From Actinomycetes bacterium (lineage in GTDB: Bacteria; Actinomycetota; CADDZG01; JAHWKV01), in the NCBI GenBank assembly GCA_029263075.1, contig JAJCYE010000071.1, positions 11,014-75,013 on the forward strand: a stretch of 64,000 bases of DNA. The letters are read 5' to 3'. The position numbers were made by a program, and so were the translations under genes. The notes under the pieces were generated by a model. That model did not search any database, was not told where the DNA came from, and saw only the letters and a list, made by a program, of their open reading frames with translations. Shown here piece after piece: positions 454-33,586 of this stretch. The stretch's first letter is position 1. Each line of letters opens with the position of its first letter.

Positions 454-1110
454 CTAGCCGGCGAAGCGATATCCCACGTTTCTGACTGTCTCGATCATGT
501 GGGCTTCATGCCCAAGCTTGGCCCTCAACCGTCTCACATGAACGTCTACCGTACGGGTGCCTCCAAAAAAGTCGTAGCCCCAGACCTCGCTTAACAGTGC
601 ACTACGCGAACACACCCGGCCCGGTCTTTGGGCCAGATAGGCGATCAACTCGAACTCCTTGAACGTCAGGTCCAGGGTCTCGCCCCGTACCTTTACCTCG
701 AAGCGCTCCCGGTTGATGTTGATTTCCCCGCGCTTGATCACGTCCGATGACTCCACCTCCACCGGGGTGACCACCCTGCGGATCCGGGTGTCCAACTCGA
801 TGGAGGTGCAGCGGTCGGTTAAGAAGTCGGAGGCGCCGCAGTTCCAGTCGAAGGTGGCGAGAGACTCGTCGGAGAGCACCACGATAAAGGGGGCCTCGGT
901 TTCGCCCCGCAGCTTGCGGATGACGCCGGCGGCCTCCTCCGGACGCTCCCGTCCGTCCACCAGAACCAGGTCGGCCAATCTGCGACCGAGAAGATCCGGC
1001 GTGGCGTCGGCAAATGTGATCGGCTCAGGTGCCGGCCGTTTACCGGCGAGAGGGGAGAAGGACTCCTCGGGATCGGAACGCTGACTACTCAGCCAAAGTA
1101 GGCGAATCAT
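454..1110 (-). CDS. glnR: GlnR-type orphan OmpR-family response regulator with atypical receiver and winged-helix C-terminus
   Basis: C-terminus LDLTFKEFELIAYLAQRPGRVCSRSALLSEVWGYDFFGGTRTVDVHVRRLRAKLG...VRNVGYRF matches actinobacterial GlnR almost residue by residue. Receiver retains DLVLVDG but lacks the acidic pocket. Adjacent to glnA. Confidence 0.8.
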   Translation of the reverse strand: MIRLLWLSSQRSDPEESFSPLAGKRPAPEPITFADATPDLLGRRLADLVLVDGRERPEEAAGVIRKLRGETEAPFIVVLSDESLATFDWNCGASDFLTDRCTSIELDTRIRRVVTPVEVESSDVIKRGEININRERFEVKVRGETLDLTFKEFELIAYLAQRPGRVCSRSALLSEVWGYDFFGGTRTVDVHVRRLRAKLGHEAHMIETVRNVGYRFAG

Positions 1111-1199
1111 TAACAGCAGTCTAAGTGCTGATGCGGTAGCTGTGACGACCGTCGAATGTTGGACTCCCCTTGTTCTACCGAACTATAGGATAACTTGCC

Positions 1200-1988
1200 A
1201 TGTCCTCCGGATCGCAGGTCCCTGCTTCAGCGACGTCCCGAGCTGCCCTCGCCGGACTGGCTGCCGGGGCGGTGGGAGCGTCGATTTTGGGTCCGAGGAT
1301 CTTCGCCGGCTATGCAGCGGTGGGGCTGTTTTCGGGTGTAGGGCTCACTCTCAGGTCCCTCGGCACCTCCGGACGGTTCCTGCCGGGCTTGGCAGCCGGT
1401 CTGGTGGTCCTTTTCCCGCTGGCGGCGAGTGAGATGGGTGAGGAGGGGATTCTGCCGGCGGTCGCGGTAACCCTGATGGTGCTGGCCGCCGGGTTTATAG
1501 GCCGCGGCCTTAAGGGCGGGGCCGTCGGTTCAATGGCGCTCAGCCTGCTGGTGGTGCTGCATCTGGGCCTTCTCGGCTACTACCTGGTGCTGCTGGCGGC
1601 GTCTGGCAATCGTCTTCTGGGAGCCCTGTTCTTGATGGTGGCGGGGTTCGAGGTTGCCCACGGGCTGTTGGCCGGGCGGCAAAGCCCGAGGGCCGGCCGG
1701 CCCGCCATCGACCCGGTGGCAGCGGGCGCCGGGGTTGTGGCGTGCATTGCCTCGGCATTGGTAGCCAGCCTGTTTTTGGACTTCGGCCTCGGCCTCGACA
1801 GTTTTCTCCTCCTGGGAGCGGTGGTTGGTGCTTTTGCCGCCCTGGGGCATGTATCCGCGTCCGGGGCCATGGAGGACCTTTTTGGTGGTCGGGTGGGGGC
1901 TCCGAACCCCCGTGCCCTGGCCGCCCTGAATGCGCTGTTGTTCGCGGCCGGAGTTTTTTACTACGGGTTCAGGCTCTACCTGGCGTGA
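1200..1988 (+). CDS. hypothetical polytopic membrane protein (Ala/Gly/Leu-rich)
   Basis: 262-aa ORF with about 7 hydrophobic segments. No recognisable motif. Confidence 0.45.
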   Translation: MSSGSQVPASATSRAALAGLAAGAVGASILGPRIFAGYAAVGLFSGVGLTLRSLGTSGRFLPGLAAGLVVLFPLAASEMGEEGILPAVAVTLMVLAAGFIGRGLKGGAVGSMALSLLVVLHLGLLGYYLVLLAASGNRLLGALFLMVAGFEVAHGLLAGRQSPRAGRPAIDPVAAGAGVVACIASALVASLFLDFGLGLDSFLLLGAVVGAFAALGHVSASGAMEDLFGGRVGAPNPRALAALNALLFAAGVFYYGFRLYLA

Positions 1989-1995
1989 CATCCGC

Positions 1996-2379
1996 TCACG
2001 CTGGGGAGGTGGGGAGGGGATATGCCCTTGCCCTCTCCAGGGCGATGCGCAGGGCATCAAGAACGATGGTGGCGCAGTTCATCCGGTCCTCCGGGATTCC
2101 CCCCAGGGCGAAAGAAAGGTTGCCGGCGTTCAACATCTGGGCGGCGGTAATCGACGTGCCGATGACAAGCTCACAAACGGCATCCGCCGAGGCAATGGCG
2201 GTGGCGCAGCCCTGAGCCCGAAATCGGGCGTCGGCGATAACGCCGTCGACCACCTTTAGGGCCAGATGTACGACGTCGCCACAGGTTTCGTTGCCCGCCT
2301 GCGCCGCGCCCTGCGGCTGGTCCAGATCTCCGGCATGGGAAGGCTCCAGGAATCTGGCCATCAGCGCATCGCTGTACAT
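1996..2379 (-). CDS. IscU/SufU/NifU-like Fe-S cluster assembly scaffold
   Basis: MYSDALMARFLEPSHAGDLDQ...NETCGDVVHLALKVVDGVIADARFRAQGCATAIASADAV aligns with IscU (CGD ... GCxxxIAS motifs). Confidence 0.8.
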   Translation of the reverse strand: MYSDALMARFLEPSHAGDLDQPQGAAQAGNETCGDVVHLALKVVDGVIADARFRAQGCATAIASADAVCELVIGTSITAAQMLNAGNLSFALGGIPEDRMNCATIVLDALRIALERARAYPLPTSPA

Positions 2380-2453
2380 CTATCCACTCTAATGGAGGCC
2401 CCGTAGCTACCCGAGGCCCCCCGCAGCCCGGTAATGGTGCGTTACTCTGGGTC

Positions 2454-3590
2454 ATGCCTACTATCGAGCAAGTCCGTGACGTCCTGGCCACCATCAACGA
2501 CCCCGAGTTGCACCGCAGCATCGTGGAGTTGGGCATGGTGAAACAGATCGATGTCGCGGTGCCCCATGTGACGGTGGACCTGGCGTTGACCATCCCGGGC
2601 TGTCCTCTAAAGGCCTTCTTTCAGGAAGTACTCCCCGCGAAAATCCAGGCGTCCTTCCCGGAGATCACCCAGGTCACAGTGAACCTGGGCGCCATGACCG
2701 ACGAGGAGCGCAAAGCTCTGGTCGGCGGAGTCAAATCCGAAAGCCCGTCTTCCTTCGCCGGACCGCAGTCGCGGACTACGGTGCTCGCCGTCGGAAGCGG
2801 CAAGGGCGGTGTCGGAAAGTCCACCCTCACCGCCAACTTGGCGGCCGCTCTCGCGAAACGTGGCCACTCGGTTGGGCTGCTGGACGCGGACATCTGGGGA
2901 TTCTCGTCCTCACGGATGTTGGGGACCTCGGCCAAGCCGACGGTTATCGACGAGCGGCTGATTGTGCCGGTCGAAGCGTACGGCTTCAAGATGATCTCTA
3001 TGGGCAACCTGGTGGAGGACGACCGGCCGGTGGTCATGCGCGGCCCCATGCTCCACAAGATCCTTCAAAGCTTTCTTTCGGACGTGCACTGGGAGGAACC
3101 GGACTACCTATTGATAGACATGCCTCCCGGAACCGGCGACATCTCGCTTTCGCTTTCCCAGTTTGTCCCCGGGTGCTCGATCATCCTGGTCACCACCCCC
3201 CAGCAGGCTGCCGAGAAGGTTGCTGAGCGGGCCGGTCATATGGCCGGCAAAGTCGGAATGAAGGTGGCAGGGGTCATCGAGAACATGTCCTACGCCCTTT
3301 GTGATCACTGCGGAGAACGAACTCACCCCTTCGGCACCGGTGGAGGCAAGGAACTGGCTGAGACTTTCGGCGCCCCGCTTTTGGGTCAGATCCCCCTGGA
3401 CCCGCCCATGGGCGAATTGGCGGACCACGGCAAGCCGTCGGTCGTAGTCAGCCCGGACTCACCGTCGGCAAAGGCGTTCGAGGAAGTCACGGCGGCCTTG
3501 GTCGAGTTGATTCCGCCCAAGCCGAAGTCCCGGCCGAAGATTTCGTTGCCGATCATCATGAGTCCGTCGGCCCCGGCTCACAGCGGCTGA
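2454..3590 (+). CDS. apbC: Mrp/ApbC/NBP35 Fe-S cluster carrier ATPase with N-terminal MIP18/DUF59 domain
   Basis: DUF59-like N-terminus (INDPELHRSIVELGMV), P-loop VGSGKGGVGKSTLTANLA, and CxxC (CDHC) near the C-terminus. Confidence 0.9.
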   Translation: MPTIEQVRDVLATINDPELHRSIVELGMVKQIDVAVPHVTVDLALTIPGCPLKAFFQEVLPAKIQASFPEITQVTVNLGAMTDEERKALVGGVKSESPSSFAGPQSRTTVLAVGSGKGGVGKSTLTANLAAALAKRGHSVGLLDADIWGFSSSRMLGTSAKPTVIDERLIVPVEAYGFKMISMGNLVEDDRPVVMRGPMLHKILQSFLSDVHWEEPDYLLIDMPPGTGDISLSLSQFVPGCSIILVTTPQQAAEKVAERAGHMAGKVGMKVAGVIENMSYALCDHCGERTHPFGTGGGKELAETFGAPLLGQIPLDPPMGELADHGKPSVVVSPDSPSAKAFEEVTAALVELIPPKPKSRPKISLPIIMSPSAPAHSG

Positions 3591-3599
3591 GCAAGCCTC

Positions 3600-3958
3600 C
3601 GGCGCCTGATCGGCGGCGGGTTTCGGTGCCCGCATAGGGTCCGAAAAGCCAGTCCTGCGTCGTTCGAGAAAATCACTGGCCTATTGCCATATCACCTTGT
3701 ACGATACCGATGTCGTGTCCCCCTGTGGGGAGGCGATGATGTGTAGCGTTTGTCGTTTCTAGCGGGGTAGTGGAATTCTTGACGATTTCCTCGATTTGTC
3801 CCTCGCAAGGGGGTAGAAAACTTCCCAAATATGCAGTGTTGGAAGCAACTGATTCGTCCCGGATTTAGATCCTCCGGACGGTCGTGTCGTTCTGATAGAG
3901 TTTGCTAGACTCGCGTCAATTCACTTAGATTCGAAATGAAACGTAAGAGGAGGTAGTA
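3600..3958 (+). promoter_or_regulatory. lower-GC intergenic leader/promoter region upstream of the Cys-rich secreted protein; strong RBS AAGAGGAGG 7 nt before the ATG
   Basis: About 360 nt noticeably AT-richer than surroundings (ttgacgatttcc..., tagaaaac, aaatatgcag). Ends in aagaggaggtagtaATG. Confidence 0.4.
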
Positions 3959-4435
3959 ATGAAGAAGCTCACGGGACTACTGCTCGTGACTGTGATTGCA
4001 GGAGCGCTTTTCGCCGCTCTGGCTCTCCCGGCGTTTGCTGCCAGCAGCAACGCAGGTGGAGTTGTTGTCGAGTCCGGCGATGCGCCTGACTGTGTCGGCG
4101 GAAGCTGCGGCGGCGTCATCGTCGAGGACCCGGCCGGCATCGGCCCGGACTGCACCGGCGGTAACTGCGGCGGAAGCATCTGCCAGGGCCCGGACTGCGG
4201 AAGCTGCGCAGACGGTAACTGTGGTGGAAGCATCAGCGGACCCGGTACTCCGGCCAAGAGCCACACGGCTGCTGCGCCCCCCAAGGCCCTGCCTCGCACC
4301 GGTATCCCCACGGCTGCCACGCTTGCCCTGGGTGCCGGAATGATCCTGGTCGGACTGTTCTTCACCTTTGTGGAGCACCCCTCCACCAAAGTGGCGATGG
4401 CAGCAATGTCCTACCGCCCGAAGCGTCGTCTGTAA
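3959..4435 (+). CDS. secreted cysteine-rich repeat protein with LPXTG-type (LPRTG) sortase sorting signal
   Basis: Signal peptide MKKLTGLLLVTVIAGALFAALALPAFA. Repeats DCVGGSCGG / DCTGGNCGG / DCGSCADGNCGG. LPRTG followed by a hydrophobic span and an RPKRRL tail. Confidence 0.7.
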   Translation: MKKLTGLLLVTVIAGALFAALALPAFAASSNAGGVVVESGDAPDCVGGSCGGVIVEDPAGIGPDCTGGNCGGSICQGPDCGSCADGNCGGSISGPGTPAKSHTAAAPPKALPRTGIPTAATLALGAGMILVGLFFTFVEHPSTKVAMAAMSYRPKRRL

Positions 4436-4452
4436 CCAACTAGCTTCAACAA

Positions 4453-4483
4453 ACAGCCCCCGGAAACGGGGGCTGTTTTTTTT
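4453..4483 (+). terminator. rho-independent terminator (acagcccccg-gaaa-cgggggctgt + T8)
   Basis: Perfect 10-bp GC-rich stem, 4-nt loop, run of 8 T. Lies between the Cys-rich gene and the HTTM gene. Confidence 0.85.
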
Positions 4484-4500
4484 GTGCCATGAGCTAGGGT

Positions 4501-6078
4501 GTGCGTGAATTGAGCGCACCCGAATCTTCGCCCGAACTGCCGAACAAGCCGCCTTCGCCGCTGGCCCGACTGGCGGCGTCGCTGGGTTCGCCGGTGGACG
4601 CCGGTGCCCTCGCCTACTTCCGGATTGTTTTCGGGTTGGTACTCGCCTGGGAAGCGTACCGATACATGAGCTTCGGTTGGGTCGACAAGTACTACGTCGA
4701 CCGGCCGTTCTTGTTCGGTTACTGGCCTTTCGAATTCGTCAGGCCGTGGTCGGCCGACGGTCTGAGGGTGCATTTTGTCGTCCTGGTAGTAGCCGGCCTT
4801 CTCGTCAGTGCGGGCCTGTTCTACCGCCTGGCGACGGTTGTCGCGTTCTTGGGTGTGACCTACATGTTCTTGCTGGACAAGTCCCTGTACCTCAATCACA
4901 TCTATCTGGTTTGCCTTGTGGCGCTCGTGATGATGTTCCTCCCGGCCCATCGCCGCTGGTCGGTCGACGCCTTGCGCAGCACAGAAGTCGCTTGCGAGGT
5001 CGTTCCTGCCTGGATGTTGTGGCTTATCCGTTTCCAGATTGCCCTTCCGTACTTCTTCGGGGGGATATCCAAGCTCAACCCGGATTGGTTCCAGGGCCAG
5101 CCGTTGAAAATGTGGTTGGCGGATCAGACGGACTTCCCATTGATCGGCCACCTGTTCGTCCAGGACCCGGTTCCCCGGCTGATGACCTTCGGCGCCCTGG
5201 TGCTAGACCTGGGAGTGGTTCCGCTGCTCTTGTTCCGCAAGACGCGGCCCGTCGGATATGCGGCGGCGGTGGTATTTCATTTTCTGAACGCGAGGTTGTT
5301 CAACATCGGGATTTTCCCCTGGTTCATGATCGCGGCGACCGCGATCTTCTTCCCGCCCGACTGGCCCCGGCGGGTACTTAGGGATCTGAGGCGCAGACCG
5401 GAGTCGCTTCGATCGTTGGCCTGGTGGATCGGATTTGCGGGCGGAGCCTGGCTGGCGTGGTTCCTCCCGAAACGCTTTGAGGTGCCCCCAGTCGTCCTGG
5501 GGGGATTGGGCTGCGCCTTGGTTCTCTACAGCTTGGTAGAGCTCTTCCGGCCGCTTCCTGACGCTCCTGAGCCCGGCGGCGAGACGGGGGAGACCGCTTC
5601 CCTGGTAGCGAAGCGAGCGGACCGGCTTTCCCGCCCGGTTTCGGTGTTCCTGGCGCTTTGGGTTGCCTTCCATCTGCTGGTGCCCCTCAGGCACCTGGCG
5701 ATCCCGGGGAACACCTATTGGACCGAAGAGGGCCACCGTTTTTCGTGGATGATGCTGGTCCGATCTAAGGTCGGCACCACCCGCTACGTCATTACGGATA
5801 ACTCGAATGGCCGGACCTGGCAGGTCAATCCTGCGGTCTATCTGGCGCCGCATCAGCTTCAGGGGATGCGGGGCAAGCCGGACATGGTGCTTCAGTTCGC
5901 CCGCTACCTGCGGGATCGCCTCCACGAGGAGGGGCATACGGACGTCGAGGTCCGGGCGCTTACCAGCGTTTCGTTGAATGGGCGGGAGTGGCGTCCAATG
6001 GTCGATCCGGAAGTCGACCTTGCCGCAGCGCGGTGGCCGTGGTTCGGGCATGCCGATTGGATTTTGCCCGAGCGGTAG
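4501..6078 (+). CDS. HTTM-domain integral membrane protein, vitamin K-dependent gamma-glutamyl carboxylase-like
   Basis: N-terminal HTTM signature (LAYFRIVFGLVLAWEAY..., multiple TM). C-terminal NTYWTEEGHRFSWMMLVRSKVGTTRYVITDNSNGRTWQVNP resembles the conserved VKGC segment [41 protein letters not shown] (recalled from memory). GTG start is an assumption. Confidence 0.75.
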   Translation: MRELSAPESSPELPNKPPSPLARLAASLGSPVDAGALAYFRIVFGLVLAWEAYRYMSFGWVDKYYVDRPFLFGYWPFEFVRPWSADGLRVHFVVLVVAGLLVSAGLFYRLATVVAFLGVTYMFLLDKSLYLNHIYLVCLVALVMMFLPAHRRWSVDALRSTEVACEVVPAWMLWLIRFQIALPYFFGGISKLNPDWFQGQPLKMWLADQTDFPLIGHLFVQDPVPRLMTFGALVLDLGVVPLLLFRKTRPVGYAAAVVFHFLNARLFNIGIFPWFMIAATAIFFPPDWPRRVLRDLRRRPESLRSLAWWIGFAGGAWLAWFLPKRFEVPPVVLGGLGCALVLYSLVELFRPLPDAPEPGGETGETASLVAKRADRLSRPVSVFLALWVAFHLLVPLRHLAIPGNTYWTEEGHRFSWMMLVRSKVGTTRYVITDNSNGRTWQVNPAVYLAPHQLQGMRGKPDMVLQFARYLRDRLHEEGHTDVEVRALTSVSLNGREWRPMVDPEVDLAAARWPWFGHADWILPER

Positions 6079-6164
6079 GAATCTATGGGCGGCAGGTCAG
6101 ATACTCAGGCGTTTGAAACCCGGTTCGTGAAGCGCAATTCAGGTTTTGACAATGTAGGCCCAGC

Positions 6165-6197
6165 AAAAAGGGCGACCCCCGGAGGGGTCGCCCTTTT
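6165..6197. terminator. bidirectional intrinsic terminator (gggcgacccc-cgga-ggggtcgccc flanked by A5/T4)
   Basis: 10-bp GC stem with A-run upstream and T-run downstream. Serves the HTTM gene (+) and Gly-rich paralog 1 (-). Confidence 0.8.
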
Positions 6198-6214
6198 GTG
6201 AAGCTCGTCTTCTT

Positions 6215-6883
6215 TTAGCAGTCGTTGTTGGTGCCGGCGTCGGCACAAACGTCGCCGCTGTTGCCGGTCTCGCCGCTGTTGCCGGAGGTGCCGCCGTCGC
6301 CGGCGATGCCGGAGTCGCCGCCGACGCCACCTTCGCCACCGTCACCGGTGTCTGCGTCGCCGCCGTTACCTTCGCCGCCTTCGCCGCCTTCGCCGTTGCC
6401 ACCGTTGGCTCCGTTGCAACCTTCGCCGGTGTCGCCACCGCTACCGTCACAAGCACCGGTGCCGCCGTTGCCGCCTGCTCCGCCGCCGCCGTCGCCGCCG
6501 CCGGTGGTTGCACCTGCGTAGGCTCCGCTGCCGCCGGCTGCTCCGCCGCCGCCACCTGCGCCGCCGTTGCCGCCACCTGCGCCACCTGCGCCACCTGCGC
6601 CTGCTCCGCCGCCGCCGCCGTCGCCGCTACCGCCGGCCGCCGGGCCGGATGCGCCGCCTGCTCCGCCGGCTCCACCGTCTCCGGATGCGCCGCCTTCGCC
6701 GCCACTGCCGGTCTCACCGGAGTCGCCGCTGCTGCCGGATTCGAGGCTGAAGTCCTGCGAGCACTCGGCTTCGTCGGATCCGGCACCTGAGACGTCACAG
6801 TCGTTCTCTGCAGCCGCCGTGGGCATCAGCAGCGCTGAAACCATGGCGAGCATCATGAGCGTACCAAACAGCTTCTTGATCAT
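6215..6883 (-). CDS. secreted acidic Gly-rich repeat protein, paralog 1 (PGRS-like GGAGGNGG repeats, 6 conserved Cys)
   Basis: Signal peptide MIKKLFGTLMMLAMVSALLMPTAAA. Mature N-terminus ENDCDVSGAGSDEAECSQDF. Central GACDGSGGDTGEGCNG. C-terminus CADAGTNNDC. RBS GGAGG 8 nt upstream of ATG 6883. Confidence 0.8.
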   Translation of the reverse strand: MIKKLFGTLMMLAMVSALLMPTAAAENDCDVSGAGSDEAECSQDFSLESGSSGDSGETGSGGEGGASGDGGAGGAGGASGPAAGGSGDGGGGGAGAGGAGGAGGGNGGAGGGGGAAGGSGAYAGATTGGGDGGGGAGGNGGTGACDGSGGDTGEGCNGANGGNGEGGEGGEGNGGDADTGDGGEGGVGGDSGIAGDGGTSGNSGETGNSGDVCADAGTNNDC

Positions 6884-7036
6884 TACTGGTTACCTCCTAG
6901 GAACGGTTGGTGCCAGATGTCCTTGGGACACCGTGAGAAATCTATCCTCAGGGATGCGGCTTGGCAACCCCATTTGGGGGTGCCAGGAGGTAATTCTTAT
7001 GAGGAGTAGGAGTTTGGCTGGTTTGGCGAGAAAGAC

Positions 7037-7067
7037 GAAGGCCCCCGGGGAATCCCCGGGGGCCTTC
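7037..7067 (-). terminator. intrinsic terminator hairpin (14-bp stem gaaggcccccgggg/ccccgggggccttc) after paralog 2
   Basis: Perfect 14-bp inverted repeat with a 3-nt loop, then a T-rich tract on the minus strand. Confidence 0.6.
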
Positions 7068-7127
7068 GGTGTGACCTGATATGGAGTTGAGGGCTTGGCC
7101 CTCCGCTCCTAAATCACAGGTCTCGTT

Positions 7128-7796
7128 TTAGCAGTCGTTGTCGGTGCCGGCGTCGGCACATGCGTCGCCGCTGTTGCCGGTCTCGCCGCTGTCGCCGGAG
7201 GTGCCGCCGTTACCAGCGTTGCCGCTGACGCCGCCTTCGCCGCCGTTGCCAGCGTCGCCGGTGTCGGCGTCGCCGCCGTTACCTTCGCCGCCTTCGCCGC
7301 CTTCGCCGTCGCCGCCGTTGCCGCCGTTGCAGCCTTCGCCGTTGTCGCCGCCGCTGCCGTCACATGCGCCGTCGCCGCCGGTGCCACCTGCGCCGCCGCC
7401 GCCGTTACCGCCACCGGTGGTTGCGCCCGAGTAGTCGCCGCTGCCGCCGGCTGCTCCGCCGCCGCCACCTGCGCCACCGTTACCGCCACCTGCGCCACCG
7501 TCGCCGGCTGCGCCAGCTCCGCCGCCGCCGCCGTTGCCGCTGCCGCCGGCTGCTGCACCGGTGTCTCCACCAGCGCCGCCTTCGCCGCCAGCGCCGGACT
7601 CGCCGCCGTCGCCGCCACTGCCGGTCTCACCGGAGTCGCCGCTGCCGCCGGTCTCGAGGCTGAAGTCCTGCGAGCACTCGGCTTCGTCGGCTCCGGCACC
7701 TGAGACGTCACAGTCGTTCTCTGCAGCCGCCGTGGGCATCAGCAGAGCTGAAACCATGGCGAGCATCATGAGCATGCCAAAAAGCTTCTTGATCAT
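7128..7796 (-). CDS. secreted acidic Gly-rich repeat protein, paralog 2
   Basis: MIKKLFGMLMMLAMVSALLMPTAAAENDCDVSGAGADEAECSQDF...CADAGTDNDC. Same length and architecture as paralog 1. Confidence 0.8.
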   Translation of the reverse strand: MIKKLFGMLMMLAMVSALLMPTAAAENDCDVSGAGADEAECSQDFSLETGGSGDSGETGSGGDGGESGAGGEGGAGGDTGAAAGGSGNGGGGGAGAAGDGGAGGGNGGAGGGGGAAGGSGDYSGATTGGGNGGGGAGGTGGDGACDGSGGDNGEGCNGGNGGDGEGGEGGEGNGGDADTGDAGNGGEGGVSGNAGNGGTSGDSGETGNSGDACADAGTDNDC

Positions 7797-8033
7797 TGCG
7801 TGCTACCTCCCTGTTGCGTTGTCTTCTGACTTGGTGTTGCAGCGTTGCCTGATTGCTTGCTATCTCGATTCCCGCAACCCCATGGGACTTGCCGTGCACC
7901 TTATGCACCGTGGCGCCTAGGAACACTGTCCCCGAAGTTACGGCGTGACTCTATCAGGTTGGTTGGTCGGGAAGGTGGGAAGCCGCGAAGAAATCTTATA
8001 GACGGGTCGACGGGAGCAGCGCGGCTAGGAAAC

Positions 8034-8063
8034 AAAAAGGACGACCCGAAGGTCGTCCTTTTT
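8034..8063. terminator. bidirectional intrinsic terminator (ggacgacc-cgaa-ggtcgtcc flanked by A5/T5)
   Basis: Hairpin with flanking A and T runs, immediately after the stop of paralog 3. Confidence 0.75.
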
Positions 8064-8105
8064 GTTAGCCATTGCCCCGCACTTCATGTGCGGGACTCAA
8101 CGTCT

Positions 8106-8774
8106 TTAGCAGTCGTTGGTGTCAGCCTCGGCACATGCGTCGCCGGTGCTTCCGGAGTCGCCGGTGGTGCCGGAGTCGCCGCCGGTGCCTGCGTCGCCGG
8201 AGTCGCCACCGATGCCGCCTTCGCCGCCGTTGCCGGTGTCAGCGCTGCCGCCGTCACCTTCGCCGCCTTCGCCGCCGGTGCCGTCGCCGCCGTCGCCGCC
8301 GGTGCAACCAGCACCGTCGTCGCCGCCGCTACCGTCACATGCGCCGTCGCCGCCAGCGCCACCTGCGCCGCCGCCGCCGTTACCGCCACCAGTGGTAGCG
8401 CCCGAGTAAGCGCCGCTGCCGCCGGCTGCTCCGCCGCCGCCACCTGCGCCGCCGTTGCCGCCACCTGCGCCGCCGTCGCCGGCTGCGCCTGCGCCGCCGC
8501 CGCCGCCGTCGCCGCTACCGCCTGCTGCCGCACCGCTGGTGCCGCCGGTTCCGCCTGCGCCGGCTACGCCGGAGTTGCCACCTGCGCCACCCTCGCCGCT
8601 CTCGCCGGTAGCGCCGGAGTCGCCGGTGCCCAGTTCGTAGCTCTGCTCGCAGCTGGCTTCGTCTTCGCCGGCACCTGAAACGTCACAGTCGTTCTCTGCT
8701 GCTGCGGTCGGAACCAGAAGTGCGGCCGCGAGGGCCAGCATCATCAGCATTCCGAGGAGATTCTTGATCCTCAT
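8106..8774 (-). CDS. secreted acidic Gly-rich repeat protein, paralog 3 (most divergent N-terminus)
   Basis: MRIKNLLGMLMMLALAAALLVPTAAAENDCDVSGAGEDEASCEQSYELG...CAEADTNDC. Confidence 0.8.
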   Translation of the reverse strand: MRIKNLLGMLMMLALAAALLVPTAAAENDCDVSGAGEDEASCEQSYELGTGDSGATGESGEGGAGGNSGVAGAGGTGGTSGAAAGGSGDGGGGGAGAAGDGGAGGGNGGAGGGGGAAGGSGAYSGATTGGGNGGGGAGGAGGDGACDGSGGDDGAGCTGGDGGDGTGGEGGEGDGGSADTGNGGEGGIGGDSGDAGTGGDSGTTGDSGSTGDACAEADTNDC

Positions 8775-8957
8775 TCTGTGTGTCCTCCTTGTAGTTCTTC
8801 TAAAGCGGCTCCCAGAGGAGCCGTGATGCGTGCTTCAAACAAGGCATGAAGTTATGCAGCTTCACGCTGTGCTCGGGGAGTCTATCAAAACGCTTGGTCG
8901 GAATGGTGCCAGAACGGGAAGAAATATTCAGGGGTGTAGCGGTCCCAAAGGACGCGC

Positions 8958-8985
8958 AAAGGGCGGCCCGTTGGGCCGCCCTTTG
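8958..8985 (-). terminator. intrinsic terminator hairpin (gggcggccc-gtt-gggccgccc + TTTG) after paralog 4
   Basis: 9-bp GC stem, 3-nt loop, short T tract. Confidence 0.6.
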
Positions 8986-9025
8986 ATGTTGAGTGTTGCT
9001 TTAGTGCATTGCCGAGATCGGCTGC

Positions 9026-9694
9026 TTAGCAGTCGTTGTCGGTGTCAGCGTCTGCGCATGCTTCGCCGGAGTTGCCGGAGTCGCCGCTGGTGCCGGAGTC
9101 GCCACCGTCACCGGCGATGCCGGAGTCGCCACCGACGCCACCTTCGCCACCGTCACCGGTGTCAGCGTCGCCGCCGTTACCTTCGCCGCCTTCGCCGCCG
9201 GTGCCGTTGCCGCCATTGCCGCCGTTGCAGCCTTCGCCGTTGTCGCCGCCACTGCCGTCACATGCACCTGCGCCGCCGTCGCCGCCGGCTCCGCCGCCGC
9301 CGTTGCCGCCGCCGGTGGTTGCACCTGCGTAAGCGCCGCTGCCGCCGGCTGCTCCGCCGCCGCCACCTGCGCCGCCGTTGCCGCCACCTGCGCCGCCGTC
9401 GCCGGCTGCGCCTGCGCCGCCGCCGCCGCCGTCGCCGCTACCGCCGAGGGCTGCCGCGCTGGCGCCACCTGCGCCACCTGCGCCACCTGCGCCGGATGCG
9501 CCACCTGCGCCTGCGTCGCCGGTTGCGCCGGTTTCGCCGGTGTCACCGGTGGTGAGGTCGAATTCCTGCGAGCACTCAGCGCTGTCCGGGCCGAGGCCGG
9601 AGACGTCACAGTCGTTCTCTGCTGCTGCGGTCGGAACCAGAAGTGCGGCCGCGAGGGCCAGCATCATCAGGGTTCCCATGAGCTTCTTGATCAT
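9026..9694 (-). CDS. secreted acidic Gly-rich repeat protein, paralog 4
   Basis: Start taken at the internal Met (MIKKLMGTLMMLALAAALLVPTAAAENDCDVSG...) with AGGAGG RBS. The 341-aa track ORF has a non-homologous basic 5' extension and is rejected. Length then matches the other paralogs at 669 nt. Confidence 0.8.
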   Translation of the reverse strand: MIKKLMGTLMMLALAAALLVPTAAAENDCDVSGLGPDSAECSQEFDLTTGDTGETGATGDAGAGGASGAGGAGGAGGASAAALGGSGDGGGGGAGAAGDGGAGGGNGGAGGGGGAAGGSGAYAGATTGGGNGGGGAGGDGGAGACDGSGGDNGEGCNGGNGGNGTGGEGGEGNGGDADTGDGGEGGVGGDSGIAGDGGDSGTSGDSGNSGEACADADTDNDC

Positions 9695-10033
9695 TCTGTA
9701 TTTCCTCCTGTGTGTTCTTTTTGTTGCAATCGTTCCGTGGACCTTGCCGCCACGAAGAACGAAACCGTGAAAATTTGCGAACTGTTTGCGATGCCCGTGG
9801 GCGGTTCGATGTGCCGCCGGGTTGGTCTTTCGACCCTTTGAGATGACGACAACCATGCCCACACTAGCTGGCCGGTAGATGTTACCCCGTCGCTTGTTCG
9901 TGTTCAAGCAATTGTTGGGACCTCTAAAATGCTGCCCCCGAAGAAGCGGTGTCCTGCATGCGGTAGGCAGCCCGTGGCGCCGAGTTAGACTCAAGGGGCC
10001 CTTAATAAGCCGGGACTTGCGTCGGAGGATGAG

Positions 10034-10570
10034 TTGTCGGAGAAGCAGCAACGTCGTGATGACAGGATTCTGGACGCTGAGATCCTCAACAATGTCCAGA
10101 CGGTGCCAACCGGGGATCTGCGCACGCGGCGGGATGAGTGCCGTGAGTTGGAGTCGGAGTTTTCGTATGCCCGCCGTCTGCTCCAGGGCAAAATCGATAT
10201 TCTCGGTTCCGAGTTGAAGCGCCGTTCCGAGGGCGGTGATGTCGGCATGGGTGACCTGGTCGGCCGGCTTCCTTCAATACTGGCCGATGAACCCAGGACC
10301 GGCGGAGCGACCCGCCTGTTGGAATCGGATCTTCCCGCCAACGCCGGCAAGTACCGCCGGTACACGGAGCGGTTGGCTACCGGTCTTGCGCACATAGAGA
10401 CCTCTACGCCCGAAGAGCTGACCGCGATGGTGGAGGAGTTGGCGACCGAAGAGCGGAAGGTTTCTGAAGACCGCAGGCGCGCCCAGAAGATCATTGATGG
10501 GCTCAACGCAGAGTTGGTCCGGCGATATCAAAAGGGTGACGAGGATCCTTCGAGCCTCCTCGGCAACTGA
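10034..10570 (+). CDS. hypothetical cytoplasmic protein, likely coiled-coil
   Basis: 178-aa ORF. TTG start 5 nt after GGAGG. No recognised domain. Confidence 0.5.
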   Translation: MSEKQQRRDDRILDAEILNNVQTVPTGDLRTRRDECRELESEFSYARRLLQGKIDILGSELKRRSEGGDVGMGDLVGRLPSILADEPRTGGATRLLESDLPANAGKYRRYTERLATGLAHIETSTPEELTAMVEELATEERKVSEDRRRAQKIIDGLNAELVRRYQKGDEDPSSLLGN

Positions 10571-11354
10571 TCCGGTGGACCCCTCAGGCACTTCCGAGGT
10601 GAACGATGCGGACGGTCGGGTCTCCCCCGAGGAGATGGATTCCGATACCGACTACCGGGCAGAACTTGAACGCACCCGATCTCAACTGCTTGTCTTCGCT
10701 CGGGACATGAGCGCGGTCTACCAGCGCAAGCGTGAGCATGAACTAAAGCTGGGCGCCCTCCTGGAGGAGTTGAGAACCGACTATCTGTCGATCGTCGAGA
10801 CGCTGGCGCTGGTGGTCGAGGCCAAGGATCAGTACACCGCGAACCACCTTGAGCGGTGCAAGCGTTACGGCATCGCTCTGACCAGCCGCATCGACGAGTC
10901 GATGATCACCCCGCAGTTGCAGTACGGGTTCTTGCTCCACGACGTCGGCAAGATCGGTATCCCGGAAGGAATCCTGATGAAACCGGGACCGCTGACCGAC
11001 GAGGAGATGACGGTGATGAGAACCCATCCGCTGATCGGGGTGCAGATCGTGGCTCCGATGCGCCGGGTCCTCGATGAGGTCACGGTAGAGGTCATCCGGC
11101 ATCACCATGAGAGGTTCGACGGCAACGGCTACCCCGATGGACTAAAAGGCGAGGACATCCCGTTGTCGGCACGGATCTTCAGCATTGTGGACAGCTTCGA
11201 TGCCATGACCAGCGACCGGCCCTATCGCAAAGCCCTCGCCCTGGATGAGGCGTTAACCCGCCTGAGGGCCGAAGCCGGCAAACAATTCGATCCCGAGGTT
11301 GTCGCAGAATTCGAACAGCTCATGCAAAGCATCCAGTCCCCGGAGGATTGGTAG
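10494..11354 (+). CDS. HD-GYP domain phosphohydrolase (putative c-di-GMP phosphodiesterase); start uncertain
   Basis: HDVGKIGIPE ... HHERFDGNGYPDGL motifs. Track ORF overlaps the upstream gene by 77 nt. Alternative in-frame starts are GTG 10599 and ATG 10635. Confidence 0.75.
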   Translation: MMGSTQSWSGDIKRVTRILRASSATDPVDPSGTSEVNDADGRVSPEEMDSDTDYRAELERTRSQLLVFARDMSAVYQRKREHELKLGALLEELRTDYLSIVETLALVVEAKDQYTANHLERCKRYGIALTSRIDESMITPQLQYGFLLHDVGKIGIPEGILMKPGPLTDEEMTVMRTHPLIGVQIVAPMRRVLDEVTVEVIRHHHERFDGNGYPDGLKGEDIPLSARIFSIVDSFDAMTSDRPYRKALALDEALTRLRAEAGKQFDPEVVAEFEQLMQSIQSPEDW

Positions 11355-11420: not shown

Positions 11421-12434
11421 GTGGAAATAACAGCGCATCCTATCGATGAATCATTCGGCCTCCCCGCCTGGGAACAGCTTTTAAGGGCCGATCCCAACCG
11501 GCACATCTTTTCGACCCCCGAGTGGAACCGGCTGTGGTGGGAGCGCTTCGGCAGGGGGCATCAGGAGGGCTTGGTCCTCACCTTCCAAGACCCCGAACCG
11601 GTAGCTATTGCCGCCTTGACGATCGACCGAACCGAACGCGGGCGGAGGGTCCGGTTCTTGGGGGGGGACGACCTGACGGACTACCAAGGTCCCCTCATTG
11701 TCTCGGAGCATTACCGCCCTGCGGTAGCCGAGGCCTTCCTTAAATACCTGTTCACCGAGTTCGCCGAATGGGACTACCTGGAGGCCAAGGGCCTGCCCGT
11801 ACCATTCCACTTCTCCGAGTGGCTGGTTGAGGCGGCCGACCGGATGGGACTTGAATTCGAACTGGAGCTGCACGAGTTGACGGCGGTCCTGATGCTGCCG
11901 GATACCTGGGAGAAGTACCTGATTGGTCTCGGGAAAAAAAGACGTCATGAACTTGAGCGAAAGACGCGGCGGTTCGAACGGGAGGCGCCCGGCGCCGTAC
12001 TGCGCACCGCCGGCGATCAAAGTCTTGAGGCGGACATCGAATCTTTTATCCGCATGCATAAGACCAGCGCCGGCGAGAAGGGGGAGTTCATGCTCCCGGC
12101 GCGGGAGGCGTTCTTCAGGGATGTCGCCCGCACCATGCAGGAGAAAGGCATGCTCTCCCTGGACTTTCTGGAGGTCCAGGGAAAGGCGCTGGCCGCCACC
12201 ATCTCCTTTCGCTACGACGGCGTCCTCTACCTGTACAACTCCGCTTACGACCTGGAGTTGAGGTCCATTTCACCCGGACTGATCCTGGTCTCCCGCATGA
12301 TCGCCCGATCCATTGAGGAGGGGGCCCGGCGTTTTGACTTTTTGAGGGGGCGGGAGCGGTACAAGTACGACCTCGGCGCAGAGGCGATGCCGCTCCACTC
12401 GATCCTGATGCGGCACCCGCCCGGGTCGCATTAG
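11421..12434 (+). CDS. FemAB/CelD-like GNAT acetyltransferase family protein (Acetyltransf_6-like)
   Basis: 337 aa. C-terminal half (ATISFRYDGVLYLYNSAYDLELRSISPGLIL...RFDFLRGRERYKYDLGA) is typical of the BioF2/FemAB-like GNAT fold. Confidence 0.55.
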   Translation: MEITAHPIDESFGLPAWEQLLRADPNRHIFSTPEWNRLWWERFGRGHQEGLVLTFQDPEPVAIAALTIDRTERGRRVRFLGGDDLTDYQGPLIVSEHYRPAVAEAFLKYLFTEFAEWDYLEAKGLPVPFHFSEWLVEAADRMGLEFELELHELTAVLMLPDTWEKYLIGLGKKRRHELERKTRRFEREAPGAVLRTAGDQSLEADIESFIRMHKTSAGEKGEFMLPAREAFFRDVARTMQEKGMLSLDFLEVQGKALAATISFRYDGVLYLYNSAYDLELRSISPGLILVSRMIARSIEEGARRFDFLRGRERYKYDLGAEAMPLHSILMRHPPGSH

Positions 12435-12595
12435 GAAGGGCAATTGGGCGCCTCCGGATCAATAAGTGCAGGGTTCGGCTACCATTTTCCTAGTAGGTAA
12501 GTAGCGTGTAGTGATGAGCCCCGGACCCGAAGGGCCTTTTATTGGCCGTTAGAGATTTCCCTTCAGCTGCCCAAAATCTGCCGCCCGTTCGCCGG

Positions 12596-13888
12596 GTGGC
12601 AATGCTTGTCGTTCACTCCAATCCCCTGGCCGAGCCCGGCTCGGGCGATGCCGGCGGCATGACCGTCTACGTTCGGCAGATGGCGGCGAGCCTCGCACAG
12701 CGCGGCATCAAAGTCGATATCTTCACCCGCCGCGACGATGCGGCAACCCCAACGGAGATGACCCTGCGGCCCGATGTTCGGGTGATACAGGTTGTTGCAG
12801 GTTCACCGGAGCTTTCCAAAGAGCAAATCCCCGCCTACCTACCCGAGTTCAGCGCCAACCTGCTCAAGATGGTGGAAGACTCCGGCGTCACCTACGACGT
12901 CGTCCACAGCCATTACTGGTTGTCGGGGAAGGTGGCCGCCATCGTCAGTGCCCGATGGAAGGTGCCGTTCGTCCACACATTCCACACCCTGGGCCGCGAG
13001 AAGAATCGGGCTCGCCGCCCCGGCGATTCACCGGAGCCGGAATTTCGTTTGGACGGGGAGGCGCGGGTGATCGCCGACGCCTGCGCGATTGTCGCCAGTA
13101 CGGTTGAGGAGCGACGGGCCCTCATCGAACTCTATGCCGCCCACCCGGAACGGATTCACCTGATTCCTCCCGGCGTCGACCACTCGACCTTTCGCCCGCA
13201 GGACCGGGAAGCGGCGAAACAGGCGCTGGGCCTCGATGGGAAGAAGGTCATGATTTTCGTCGGCCGGCTTCAACCCCTGAAGGCCGCCGATATTGCCATT
13301 GAAGCGCTGGGGCACCTGGTTCGCTGGGGCCGGGTCAACCTGGACGAGATCCGTCTGCTAATAGTCGGTGGCGCGAGTGGGACGTCTGGTGCATCGGAGA
13401 CCGGGCGGCTGGGCGATCTGGTTGAACGTTTAGGGCTAAAGGAAGCGGTTCAGTTCGTCCCCGCTCAACCCCACCACCGCCTACCTGCGTTTTATCAGGC
13501 GGCCGATGTTTGCCTGGTTCCCTCTTACACCGAGTCCTTCGGCCTGGTGGCACTGGAAGCCCAGGCGTCGGGAGTTCCGGTCGTTGGATCCGCAGTCGGG
13601 GGGCTCAAAGCCATCGTGAAGCACGGACAGACGGGCTTCCTCGTCTTGCCCGGAGCGTCGGAAAGTTTTGCCGAGAGGGCCTGGATGGTGCTTTCCGACA
13701 GCAGGCTTGCAGCCGGCATGGGCCGGTTGGCAGTGTGTTCTTCGGGAGATTTTGCGTGGGATCGGTCGGCCGGCGAGTTGCACGATCTATACACCGCCGG
13801 GGTACGCAGCAACGACTGCTCACCCTCCTCGATGTGGAGTGGGAATAAACCTTTCGGGTCGCGAACAATTGTCCTGAAGCGGCCTTGA
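12596..13888 (+). CDS. mshA: D-inositol-3-phosphate glycosyltransferase (mycothiol biosynthesis), GT4 family
   Basis: VAMLVVHSNPLAEPGSGDAGGMTVYVRQMAASLAQRGIKVDIFTRR ... HSHYWLSG ... FGLVALEAQASGVPVV closely parallels MshA. Start set at GTG 12596; track ORF starts at 12542. Confidence 0.8.
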   Translation: MAMLVVHSNPLAEPGSGDAGGMTVYVRQMAASLAQRGIKVDIFTRRDDAATPTEMTLRPDVRVIQVVAGSPELSKEQIPAYLPEFSANLLKMVEDSGVTYDVVHSHYWLSGKVAAIVSARWKVPFVHTFHTLGREKNRARRPGDSPEPEFRLDGEARVIADACAIVASTVEERRALIELYAAHPERIHLIPPGVDHSTFRPQDREAAKQALGLDGKKVMIFVGRLQPLKAADIAIEALGHLVRWGRVNLDEIRLLIVGGASGTSGASETGRLGDLVERLGLKEAVQFVPAQPHHRLPAFYQAADVCLVPSYTESFGLVALEAQASGVPVVGSAVGGLKAIVKHGQTGFLVLPGASESFAERAWMVLSDSRLAAGMGRLAVCSSGDFAWDRSAGELHDLYTAGVRSNDCSPSSMWSGNKPFGSRTIVLKRP

Positions 13889-14240
13889 CGCCCCCGCCGG
13901 GACTTGGGTAGCTTGTTCGAGTCGCACGCGGTCCGGTAGATCTCCGACAGCGAGCGGTTCCGAAGAGGGCAGAGCGAATCCTCGCTGGTCTTCCGTCTTT
14001 GAAGGTTTTGGCCTGCATCGGCGTGGATTTGGGCGGGAAGGCACTGAGTCGTCGGAGTCGTGGTTGTCCGGCTCATCCGGTCGGTTTGTGACAACGCAGG
14101 GCCCAAGATGCCGTAGGTAGCGTAGAGCTGTGTTCGGGGAAGTGCGCAGCGAGCGTGACCAAAGGTACCTTGGGCTCTGCTTTATTTTTGCCCGCCCGTG
14201 AATGTCTCGTGCCCCGCCCGGCATCTGGGATACTGCCCGA

Positions 14241-32263: not shown

Positions 32264-33586
32264 TTGGCGGATTACGACGCAATTGTCGTCGGGGCCGGTC
32301 CCGGGGGCTCGGCCGCCGCTTACTGGCTGGCAGCAGCCGGGCTCAAGGTCGTCCTTTTGGAGAAAAAGGCGCTGGGCCGCGACAAGGTGTGCGGCGACGG
32401 GCTGACTCCGCGGGCGACCAAGGCCCTGGTCGAGATGGGGGTGCGCCCCGCGACGGAGTCCTACCACCGGATCCGAGGCCTGAGGGTCCTGGGCGCCGAT
32501 CGGGAAATGGAACTGGACTGGCCCTCTCTCAGCAACTTCCCCGCCAACGGACTGGTTGCCGCCCGGGCGGTCCTGGATGCGGACATCACCCGCCGGGCCG
32601 TGGAAGCCGGGGTGGAACTCCGCGACATGACCGAGGCGGTGGAACCGGTGCGGGAGGGAACCACCGTGGTCGGCGTCAAGTGGGTCCGCAAGGAGCCCGC
32701 TGAAGGAGGCGGGGTCATCAAGGCCGACGAAGGGGAGATCCTGGCCCCCTTCACCATCGTCGCCGACGGCGCATCCTCGTCCTTCGGCCGGGCGCTCGGC
32801 ATCAAAATGGACCCTAGCTACCCGCTGGGCCTGGGGATTCGCGCCTACTACCAGACCGATCGCCACGACGACGACTTCATCGAGTCGTGGCTCGAGCTAC
32901 GCAAGGACGACCTTTTATTGCCGGGCTACGGCTGGCTCTTCCCGCTGGGCGACGGAACGATGAACGTGGGCGTCGGCCTGCTCCAGACCTCCAAGCGCGA
33001 CCTCAATGTGAACCTCAGCCGGTTGCAGCACGACTTCATCGACTGCCTGCCCAAGTCTTACGGCATCACCCACGAAAGCGCGACCGGTCCCTATAAGTCG
33101 GCCCGGCTGCCGCTCGGGGGGAGTATCCGCAAACCCTACGGCGACGGCTTCCTTTGTATTGGCGATGCCGCCGGCATGATCAACCCGTTCAACGGGGAGG
33201 GCATCGACTATGCGCTGGAAACCGGCAAGCTTGCCGCCGGCATGGTCAGCGCTGCGCTCTCCCGGGGGGACTCGGCCGAACTGCATGACTACCAGACGGC
33301 CCTGCGGGACATCTACGGCGGCTACTACCGGTTGGGCCGGCTGTTTTTGAAGATGATCAGCAAACCGGAACTGTTCCGGTTGATGTGCGGGATCGGGATG
33401 CGCTCGGAGACGGTCATGGCCTTTGCACTCCAGGTGCTGGCCAACCTGGGAGAGGACAACGGCGGGAAGATGGCCGACCGGGCGTTCCGGGGTCTGGTGC
33501 GGGCCGCCGAGAAGGGCCTGGACGAGTACAGGGACCCGGAAATCCCAACCCCCAGCGGCGCAAAGGTGGGCGCAGGAGTCTCCTGA
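32264..33586 (+). CDS. geranylgeranyl reductase family FAD-dependent oxidoreductase (MenJ-like menaquinone/isoprenoid reductase)
   Basis: YDAIVVGAGPGGSAAAYWLA FAD-binding N-terminus. GDAAG motif (CIGDAAGMINP). Confidence 0.75.
   Translation: MADYDAIVVGAGPGGSAAAYWLAAAGLKVVLLEKKALGRDKVCGDGLTPRATKALVEMGVRPATESYHRIRGLRVLGADREMELDWPSLSNFPANGLVAARAVLDADITRRAVEAGVELRDMTEAVEPVREGTTVVGVKWVRKEPAEGGGVIKADEGEILAPFTIVADGASSSFGRALGIKMDPSYPLGLGIRAYYQTDRHDDDFIESWLELRKDDLLLPGYGWLFPLGDGTMNVGVGLLQTSKRDLNVNLSRLQHDFIDCLPKSYGITHESATGPYKSARLPLGGSIRKPYGDGFLCIGDAAGMINPFNGEGIDYALETGKLAAGMVSAALSRGDSAELHDYQTALRDIYGGYYRLGRLFLKMISKPELFRLMCGIGMRSETVMAFALQVLANLGEDNGGKMADRAFRGLVRAAEKGLDEYRDPEIPTPSGAKVGAGVS

Follow-up and report, generated by a model that had tools for sequence, protein, structure and literature searches.

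The vitamin K-dependent gamma-carboxylase (VKGC) of animals underlies blood clotting and bone biology. MloH, a bacterial orthologue from malonomycin biosynthesis in Streptomyces (Law et al. 2018), carboxylates an aspartyl residue (PMC12647623, PMC12186529), so the VKGC family can act on Asp. Linaridin gene clusters encode HTTM proteins (e.g. CrdG) beside a ribosomal peptide that they presumably modify (PMC9927463, PMC10849128), and quinol-dependent chemistry has been proposed in non-animal systems for an HTTM-DCC fusion and for giant-virus homologs (bioRxiv 10.64898/2026.08.19.745780; PMC13486548). Here we analyze a stretch of 64,000 nucleotides from an Actinomycetes bacterium (assembly GCA_029263075.1, contig JAJCYE010000071.1, positions 11,014 to 75,013), referred to throughout at its full length as the window. 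It encodes a 525-residue VKGC orthologue between the gene of a Cys-rich LPRTG protein and an array of genes for Gly-rich, acidic secreted proteins. The novelty lies in finding a carboxylase orthologue inside a lineage-specific surface-protein locus with candidate acidic substrates; the kind of enzyme is itself known. We regard the locus overall as a plausible but unproven pairing of a known enzyme family with acidic protein substrate candidates.

An original prediction, made from the letters of the DNA, had proposed that this locus is a carboxylase-like modification system with a dedicated set of secreted substrates, and had added that no bacterial substrate of the family was established. In the literature that we searched, the latter statement holds for proteins, as no bacterial protein substrate of a VKGC orthologue is established there; it gives way for MloH and its aspartyl residue, and has to be corrected as well for the HTTM proteins of linaridin clusters (PMC9927463). 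The region under study comprises six genes, and its features are as follows.

3948..3953, plus strand: Shine-Dalgarno sequence AGGAGG of the Cys-rich gene, 5 nt 5' of the ATG (read directly in the sequence)
3959..4435, plus strand: gene of the Cys-rich LPRTG protein, 158 residues (open reading frame and conservation)
4451..4486, plus strand: intrinsic terminator of the Cys-rich gene, with a 12-bp stem, GAAA loop and T8 (hairpin)
4501..6078, plus strand: HTTM/VKGC enzyme gene, 525 residues, GTG start, weak ribosome-binding site (Pfam, phmmer)
6165..6197, no strand assigned: bidirectional terminator hairpin AAAAA-GGGCGACCCC-CGGA-GGGGTCGCCC-TTTT (read directly in the sequence)
6215..6883, minus strand: Gly-rich acidic secreted paralog 1, 222 residues (own AGGAGG ribosome-binding site and terminator)
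7128..7796, minus strand: Gly-rich acidic secreted paralog 2, 222 residues, terminator at 7036-7068 (open reading frame, alignment)
8106..8774, minus strand: Gly-rich acidic secreted paralog 3, 222 residues (open reading frame, alignment)
9026..9694, minus strand: Gly-rich acidic secreted paralog 4, 222 residues, true start the ATG at 9694 after AGGAGG (open reading frame, alignment)

Family membership and catalytic residues

Pfam searches matched residues 31-288 of the enzyme to the full length of the HTTM profile (PF05090, E 6.8e-83) and residues 380-524 to nearly the whole of VKGC_lumenal_dom (PF22777, E 2.2e-46); no DCC or desaturase domain was found by Pfam. When the protein was compared with the PDB by phmmer, the sole match was human GGCX (E ~2e-48), aligned over human residues 49-331 and 364-504. 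Functional residues named in PMC12647623 and PMC13486548 were then transferred to the enzyme through the human GGCX alignment, with the following outcome.

Human Asn159 and His160 (ligands of the Glu carboxylate): N132 and H133, conserved
Human Lys218 (catalytic base): K191, conserved
Human Trp223 (CO2 site): W196, conserved
Human Asp263 (quinol binding and deprotonation): D236, conserved
Human Asn290 (quinol binding and deprotonation): N263, conserved
Human Phe299 (CO2 site): F272, conserved
Human Arg406: K423, conservative change
Human Leu394-Tyr395: G411-H412, changed
Human Tyr415 and Tyr425 (propeptide contacts): I431 and Q441, changed

N132, H133, K191, W196, D236, N263 and F272 are invariant in 12 of 12 members of the enzyme's own subclade and are found in at least 107 of 108 other aligned homologs. 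Because the catalytic positions are invariant or nearly so across these 120 homologs, we take the protein to be a real and presumably active member of the bacterial VKGC orthologue family, and its sequence indicates a genuine orthologue with the catalytic core intact. The region equivalent to human residues 374-418 is present, whereas viral epoxidase-only homologs lack it. The animal C-terminal domain (~510-758) is absent, the enzyme ending at residue 525 straight after the lumenal domain. The animal-specific features are missing: the C-terminal domain, Tyr395 and the propeptide/Gla (gamma-carboxyglutamate) substrates. These searches bore out what the original prediction had said of the protein encoded at 4501..6078, namely its HTTM domain and the likeness to GGCX of a C-terminal segment, which falls within the alignment to human residues 364-504; the catalytic core of the active site, which it had proposed to check, is conserved.

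The bacterial VKGC orthologues form a large family whose members already have annotations, either HTTM or "vitamin K-dependent gamma-carboxylase". Of the scored candidate proteins, 1968 matched at E<=1e-20, and 269 relatives came from a pattern scan of the genomes searched, taken one per species.

Acidic exported proteins beside the enzyme and its orthologues

The four acidic secreted paralogs that had been predicted downstream are present, 75-86% identical as proteins and 78-88% as DNA; what had gone unremarked is that all four are monocistronic genes of the minus strand and converge with that of the enzyme. Differences between them fall mostly at codon position 3 (47 versus 15 and 18 in one example), and the Gly-rich frame is therefore the coding frame. 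Each gene has its own AGGAGG-type ribosome-binding site and its own hairpin terminator. A longer open reading frame (ORF) extending to 10051 was rejected as the start of paralog 4 and is an artefact; the true start, the ATG at 9694, follows an AGGAGG. The mature proteins have 197 residues, are 44-45% Gly with a GGX three-residue periodicity, and contain 30-34 Asp plus Glu (~16%) with no Lys, Arg or His; in paralog 1 the values are 45% Gly and 30 Asp plus Glu. They are the most net-acidic products of the 64-kb window. Each contains 6 Cys as three conserved pairs, and by inspection the presence or absence of the C-terminal pair does not follow that of the enzyme.

No Pfam or NCBIfam family matched the Gly-rich proteins. 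An RTX-type or PE_PGRS-type identity was also rejected, as Pfam gave no match and inspection of the repeat showed no position of hydrophobic character. AlphaFold2 gave no confident fold from a 4-sequence alignment (predicted local distance difference test, pLDDT, 38.6). An HMMER scan with the four paralogs against 1.84 billion representatives yielded 26 matches, ~5 of them real and mostly fragments, so the distribution of the family is poorly sampled; a word-indexed protein search with a paralog ran into low-complexity saturation and returned one weak match. Spurious long ORFs rich in Ala, Pro and Arg cover positions 6079-10100 of the window on both strands, in the five other frames of the GGN-rich array, and are by-products of the GGN repeats. 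In addition, contigs frequently break within the array (L084, L087, L089). These spurious ORFs and contig breaks are probably why protein databases hold few full-length homologs.

Related loci were read from two anchors, the enzyme and the Cys-rich protein. The order seen in the window (ApbC, Cys-rich gene, enzyme, Gly-rich array) recurs in L081, L085, L087 (with L088-L090), L091 and L084, and a sixth such relative, L001, is short and shows just the enzyme and one Gly-rich gene. Two loci come from another sample. In L086, a pair of Gly-rich genes is followed by two enzyme genes in tandem, one more Gly-rich gene and a family-2 glycosyltransferase (GT2) gene, and L083 has the enzyme and a Gly-rich gene followed by a citrate-transporter block (CitMHS). 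The tandem carboxylase-homolog genes of L086 lie at 1317-2900 and 2910-4460 with Gly-rich acidic genes of the same orientation on either side; the tree places the second copy outside the subclade of the window, and the glycosyltransferase flanking the cluster (5391-6233) is a smaller one of 280 residues.

In a neighbour-joining tree, the enzymes adjoining Gly-rich genes form one clade (P0001-P0012). All members of the subclade with readable flanks adjoin Gly-rich acidic genes, in three genomic contexts, so that the adjacency outlasts rearrangement. A composition scan detected Gly-rich acidic ORFs in every subclade locus that had enough flank; it brought up no such ORF in the rest of the window or in the 1.35 Mb surrounding 79 orthologues of greater distance. 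When the Cys-rich and Gly-rich proteins were searched for in 80 orthologue loci by composition-corrected tblastn, nothing was found, and even the true homolog in L001 was missed. That the subclade always adjoins Gly-rich genes, with none around the distant orthologues, argues for a functional tie between them. Among the orthologue loci as a whole, the HTTM gene is widespread without these neighbours, a distribution that the original prediction had named as counting against it.

Some of the distant orthologues have acidic neighbours of other kinds. In 80 loci of distant orthologues, we compared ORFs within 600 bp of the enzyme gene with those farther away. An acidic tract (at least 12 Asp/Glu in 20 residues) was present in 12 of 177 near ORFs versus 1 of 971 farther ones (Fisher p 1.5e-9), and at least two runs of at least four Asp in 13 of 177 versus 0 of 971 (p 2e-11). 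These neighbours are mostly encoded on the same strand as the enzyme, 90-400 nt away, with (D4-6 G)n tracts, and by inspection all have a signal peptide, a lipobox or a signal-anchor-like N-terminus. They belong to six unrelated families whose export or anchoring signals differ (SLH, type IX secretion system (T9SS) tail, lipobox, signal peptide). Among them are SLH-domain proteins in cyanobacteria, a poly-Asp-tailed lipoprotein in Rhodohalobacter and relatives, and a T9SS-sorted PKD protein in a Bacteroidota metagenome-assembled genome (MAG); Latescibacterota proteins, one Fulvivirga protein and the acidic neighbour in an Anaerolineae MAG, whose tract (11/20) is just under the cut-off, have no assigned family. 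The enrichment spans at least four other phyla (Bacteroidota, Balneolota, Cyanobacteria and Latescibacterota). Clustering the neighbours by sequence revealed no conserved partner family of the enzyme, and the signal emerges by composition alone. We found nothing on these poly-Asp neighbours in the literature searched. Their positions are as follows.

L050: 2713-3429
L065: 5952-6734
L066: 9198-9917
L075: 9193-9909
L077: 3633-4655
L079: 3554-4570
L036: 11590-12783
L057: 11559-12722
L026: 11739-12761
L049: 11740-12978
L009: 11515-16095
L034: 8563-9594
L030: 8869-9921

L075 belongs to Rhodohalobacter halophilus JZ3C29, with its enzyme gene at 10001, L034 to Fulvivirga sp. M361, L036 to Sphaerothrix gracilis and L057 to Almyronema epifaneia.

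In two Dehalococcoidia genomes, the gene immediately upstream of the carboxylase homolog, in the same orientation, is small and resembles that of a DCC-type thiol-disulfide oxidoreductase (FYYDGxCGxC; L002 9527-9919, L003 9577-10023).

The cross-phylum enrichment and MloH provide independent support for enzymes of this family acting on acidic exported proteins. From the neighbourhood only, we infer that the enzyme of the window may modify, and likely carboxylate, Asp and/or Glu residues of the adjacent Gly-rich acidic exported proteins, a tentative reading to which we give a substantial chance, a little short of calling it probable. The enzyme is a membrane protein whose active site and clamp-like domain are predicted to face the cell exterior. 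The setting is a lineage-specific cell-surface locus, with the wall-anchored 8-Cys protein on one side and four extremely acidic Gly-rich proteins, predicted to be strongly expressed, on the other. By homology, reduced menaquinone and O2 would generate a strong base that takes a proton from a carboxylate-bearing side chain, which would then capture CO2. The targets would be Gly-flanked Asp and/or Glu on Gly-rich proteins emerging from the Sec channel, and carboxylation would raise the divalent-cation binding of these proteins. A wider generalization is that the substrate family differs from lineage to lineage: cyanobacteria would have SLH proteins with poly-Asp, Rhodohalobacter lipoproteins with poly-Asp, Bacteroidota T9SS proteins, and the actinobacterial lineage of the window the Gly-rich array. 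This could be so, and we consider it rather unlikely; if it holds, the locus would be among the first sets of enzyme plus protein substrate for this family outside animals.

The Cys-rich protein and the variable enzyme slot

The Cys-rich protein has a signal peptide, 8 Cys, three CxGG[SN]CGG-type repeats, LPRTG, a transmembrane helix and a conserved basic tail. Its sorting-signal features are complete (LPRTG, a 23-residue hydrophobic stretch and a tail ending ...YRPKRRL), and the LPRTG motif is near-invariant in 33 homologs. The family comprises 73 clusters that are 51-94% identical with an almost invariant Cys framework, and where the organism is named, the source is uncultured Actinomycetota only; a metagenome scan with the alignment returned five loci only. 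The protein had no Pfam match, and its AlphaFold2 model (pLDDT 66) had no fold match in the PDB. We also observed that it is much more conserved than most of its neighbours, that a 20-residue conserved tail past the membrane helix (HPSTKxAMAxxxYRPKRRL) is unusual in an LPXTG sorting signal, and that divergent members (P0179-P0189) have a poly-Asp stretch straight after the signal peptide.

The original prediction was accurate in describing this upstream gene, whose ATG lies 5 nt past AGGAGG and whose terminator consists of a 12-bp hairpin and T8, and it went on to read the gene, hairpin and enzyme as the layout of a peptide-modification cluster. On that reading, the Cys-rich protein would be a precursor modified by the enzyme, and a leaky terminator would set the ratio of precursor to enzyme. 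The two genes do share a strand, the Cys-rich gene has a strong ribosome-binding site, HTTM proteins are present in linaridin peptide clusters (PMC9927463), and the GTG start of the enzyme lies ~15 nt 3' of the terminator, so the enzyme may depend on read-through. However, all related loci have a hairpin equivalent to 4451-4486 after their Cys-rich gene, no matter if an HTTM gene, a convergent GT2 gene or a Gly-rich gene comes next. The argument from layout therefore fails, the hairpin being the Cys-rich gene's own terminator. In other loci of the ApbC-Cys-HTTM-Gly type, moreover, 70-130 nt follow the terminator, leaving room for a separate promoter. The Cys-rich protein is as well conserved where the enzyme is absent as where it is present, its mature part contains 3 Glu and 6 Asp only, and its gene is absent from the readable upstream flank of L086 (the L083 contig begins too near the enzyme gene to tell). 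We find a precursor role scarcely credible, and the Cys-rich protein is probably not the enzyme's substrate.

Several observations weigh against an enzyme-substrate relation with the Gly-rich proteins, the first group coming from gene content. In L092 and L097, the Cys-rich gene and three Gly-rich genes are kept with a cellulose-synthase-like GT2 in the enzyme's slot (11955-13895 and 781-2664, respectively), and the housekeeping genes of these two loci are as similar to the window's as those of enzyme-bearing loci (ApbC 85-88% identical). A Gly-rich gene directly follows the Cys-rich gene in L093, where the slot is empty, and other genes fill it in L099 and in L100, whose sole Gly-rich relative is divergent and 3.6 kb off. 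The enzyme reaches only 57-65% identity between loci in which that of ApbC, GlnR and the Cys-rich gene is 78-95%. Within the window, the Gly-rich genes are monocistronic, converge on the enzyme gene and are cut off from it by the bidirectional terminator at 6165-6197, which lies between the enzyme gene and the first of them. Because the loci without the enzyme keep the pair and the enzyme diverges faster, we conclude that the Cys-rich and Gly-rich genes are the conserved core, that the slot is variable, and that the enzyme in it is accessory and evolves fast, without being an obligate partner. A "dedicated" set of substrates, as the original prediction had it, is not supported, since L092, L097, L093, L100 and L099 have Cys-rich and Gly-rich genes without an enzyme in the block. 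Of the co-occurrence that it proposed to look for in relatives, one half stood, the subclade always lying beside Gly-rich genes, and the other did not, as sister genomes keep these neighbours without it. Elsewhere in these loci, L100 encodes near glnA an 898-residue secreted GDGG/TGDGG-repeat protein (874-3570; 30% Gly, 12% Asp+Glu), and P0121, a divergent family member, lies beside penicillin-binding proteins.

The second group concerns the chemistry. Rishavy et al. in 2005 (J Biol Chem) reportedly found that the Leptospira orthologue, the one bacterial member known to have been given protein-type substrates, is an epoxidase with no carboxylase activity; we know of no acidic neighbour described for it. 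The stacking position held by Tyr395 in human GGCX is His412 in the window enzyme, and His or Gln in 107 of 120 aligned bacterial homologs. Neither a Pfam Gla domain at E<=0.1 nor a PROSITE PS00011 match was found in the enzyme's neighbours, and the Gly-rich proteins have just 3-4 Glu within the first 25 residues of their mature N-termini, which the original prediction had likened to a Gla module; that likeness did not survive. No propeptide-like recognition site was found in the neighbours, which by inspection have no spacer between the signal peptide and the mature N-terminus. In the Gly-rich proteins, Glu and Asp mostly follow Gly and not the hydrophobic residue favoured by the human enzyme, and they are isolated, Gly-flanked residues, without the poly-Asp tracts found beside other orthologues.

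These points are compatible with a neighbourhood that involves no enzyme-substrate relation. The enzyme would then be a mobile accessory gene in a variable envelope locus, and its target would be a lipid, some small molecule or the quinone pool itself; it could, for example, be a menaquinol epoxidase only, as has been proposed for the Leptospira and giant-virus homologs, and the Gly-rich and Cys-rich proteins would be independent surface or matrix components. The turnover of the slot, the fast divergence of the enzyme, and the convergent, independent transcription of the Gly-rich genes all fit, as does a widespread family with no sequence-conserved neighbour; apparently epoxidase-only homologs are also on record (PMC13486548). 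Such an accidental arrangement nevertheless has to accommodate the adjacency of the subclade and the Gly-rich family in three contexts, one of them a tandem enzyme duplication flanked by Gly-rich genes, and a cross-phylum enrichment of acidic exported neighbours that is hard to get by chance. Unlike the viral epoxidases, moreover, the enzyme retains the lumenal region required for carboxylation and the carboxylate-binding Asn-His pair. We regard this alternative as a serious possibility, if a doubtful one.

The Cys pairs conserved in all neighbours (the anchored protein has 8 Cys, each of the Gly-rich ones 6) raise a further possibility, that the enzyme converts menaquinol to the epoxide, and that partners of VKOR or DCC type recycle the epoxide in a manner coupled to the formation of disulfides in the exported neighbours. 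HTTM domains frequently come fused to DCC domains or lie beside them (P0106; L002, L003; bioRxiv 10.64898/2026.08.19.745780). Against such a redox role, neither a VKOR nor a DCC gene is present among the window ORFs that were scanned, most poly-Asp neighbours in other phyla contain little Cys, and the Cys-rich and Gly-rich genes persist without the enzyme; we judge it very improbable. Carboxylation of the Gly-rich proteins is the reading that we carry forward.

Elsewhere, the window contains glnA, glnR, NifU, ApbC, RsiG, an HD-domain gene, and bc1 and Ccm genes, with EF-Tu, NusG, L11 and L1 genes recognized by inspection and SecE by Pfam. The original prediction had pointed to a MenJ-like isoprenoid reductase as a sign of menaquinone use; a geranylgeranyl-reductase-like gene is indeed present at 32264-33586, followed by genes that on inspection resemble a nuo operon, and it is not diagnostic. 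The window is core chromosome, in keeping with an aerobic, quinone-using actinobacterium, and proves nothing beyond that. In the window ORFs covered by the Pfam scan, no sortase was detected. At 10034-11354, the gene of an RsiG-like anti-sigma factor overlaps an HD_5/HD-domain gene at the latter's start, and the two, which are syntenic in L081 and L092, may be a cyclic di-GMP-linked regulatory pair beside the surface-protein locus. Between glnR and NifU, a gene at 1200-1988 encodes a multi-pass membrane protein of 262 residues for which Pfam gave no match; all related loci have the gene in synteny, at just 28-54% identity, and it is the other fast-evolving gene of the block.

Significance and comparison with described systems

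If enzymes of this family do modify the acidic exported proteins encoded beside them, then protein carboxylation occurs outside animals, in bacteria. Bacteria would thereby gain a further kind of post-translational modification, new to them and likely to serve calcium or metal binding, mineralization or envelope structure. Simple substrate-enzyme pairs of this kind would also serve the study and engineering of quinone-driven CO2 fixation. Taken alone, the window offers mixed evidence from an uncultured organism, and its weight comes together with the cross-phylum pattern. The pairing of enzyme and acidic genes provides testable candidate protein substrates for bacterial members of the family, and the pattern makes the long-open question of bacterial substrates directly testable in cultured species.

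Among the described systems, the Leptospira orthologue resembles the window enzyme in being a stand-alone bacterial protein without a known protein substrate. MloH has a polyketide-nonribosomal peptide intermediate as its substrate and belongs to a biosynthetic gene cluster, whereas the window enzyme has no such cluster around it and its neighbours are exported proteins only. The HTTM proteins of linaridin clusters come with an alpha/beta hydrolase partner and short precursor peptides; the window enzyme has a full lumenal carboxylase domain and neighbours of 150-220 residues. We considered a linaridin-type cluster, that is, one resembling those of peptides made by the ribosome and modified after translation, and rejected it, as the block contains no hydrolase gene, the exported neighbours are of full size, and the terminator is independent of the enzyme gene. 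The HTTM-DCC fusion with its DUF5819 partner (bioRxiv 10.64898/2026.08.19.745780) and the giant-virus epoxidase-desaturase homologs (PMC13486548) share the HTTM core and catalytic Lys with the window enzyme, but in them the lumenal carboxylase domain is missing or in trans, and the viral ones lack residues 374-418.

The comparison with human GGCX is the closest in architecture. At 525 versus 758 residues, the window enzyme lacks the entire C-terminal domain, has Gly-His for Leu394-Tyr395, and has altered propeptide contacts (Tyr415 to Ile, Tyr425 to Gln), and its neighbours have no propeptide or Gla domain. Nevertheless, the two share the HTTM membrane domain and the lumenal clamp domain, the equivalents of Asn159, His160, Lys218, Trp223, Asp263, Asn290, Phe299 and the 374-418 region are present, and in both the active side is predicted to face exported proteins.

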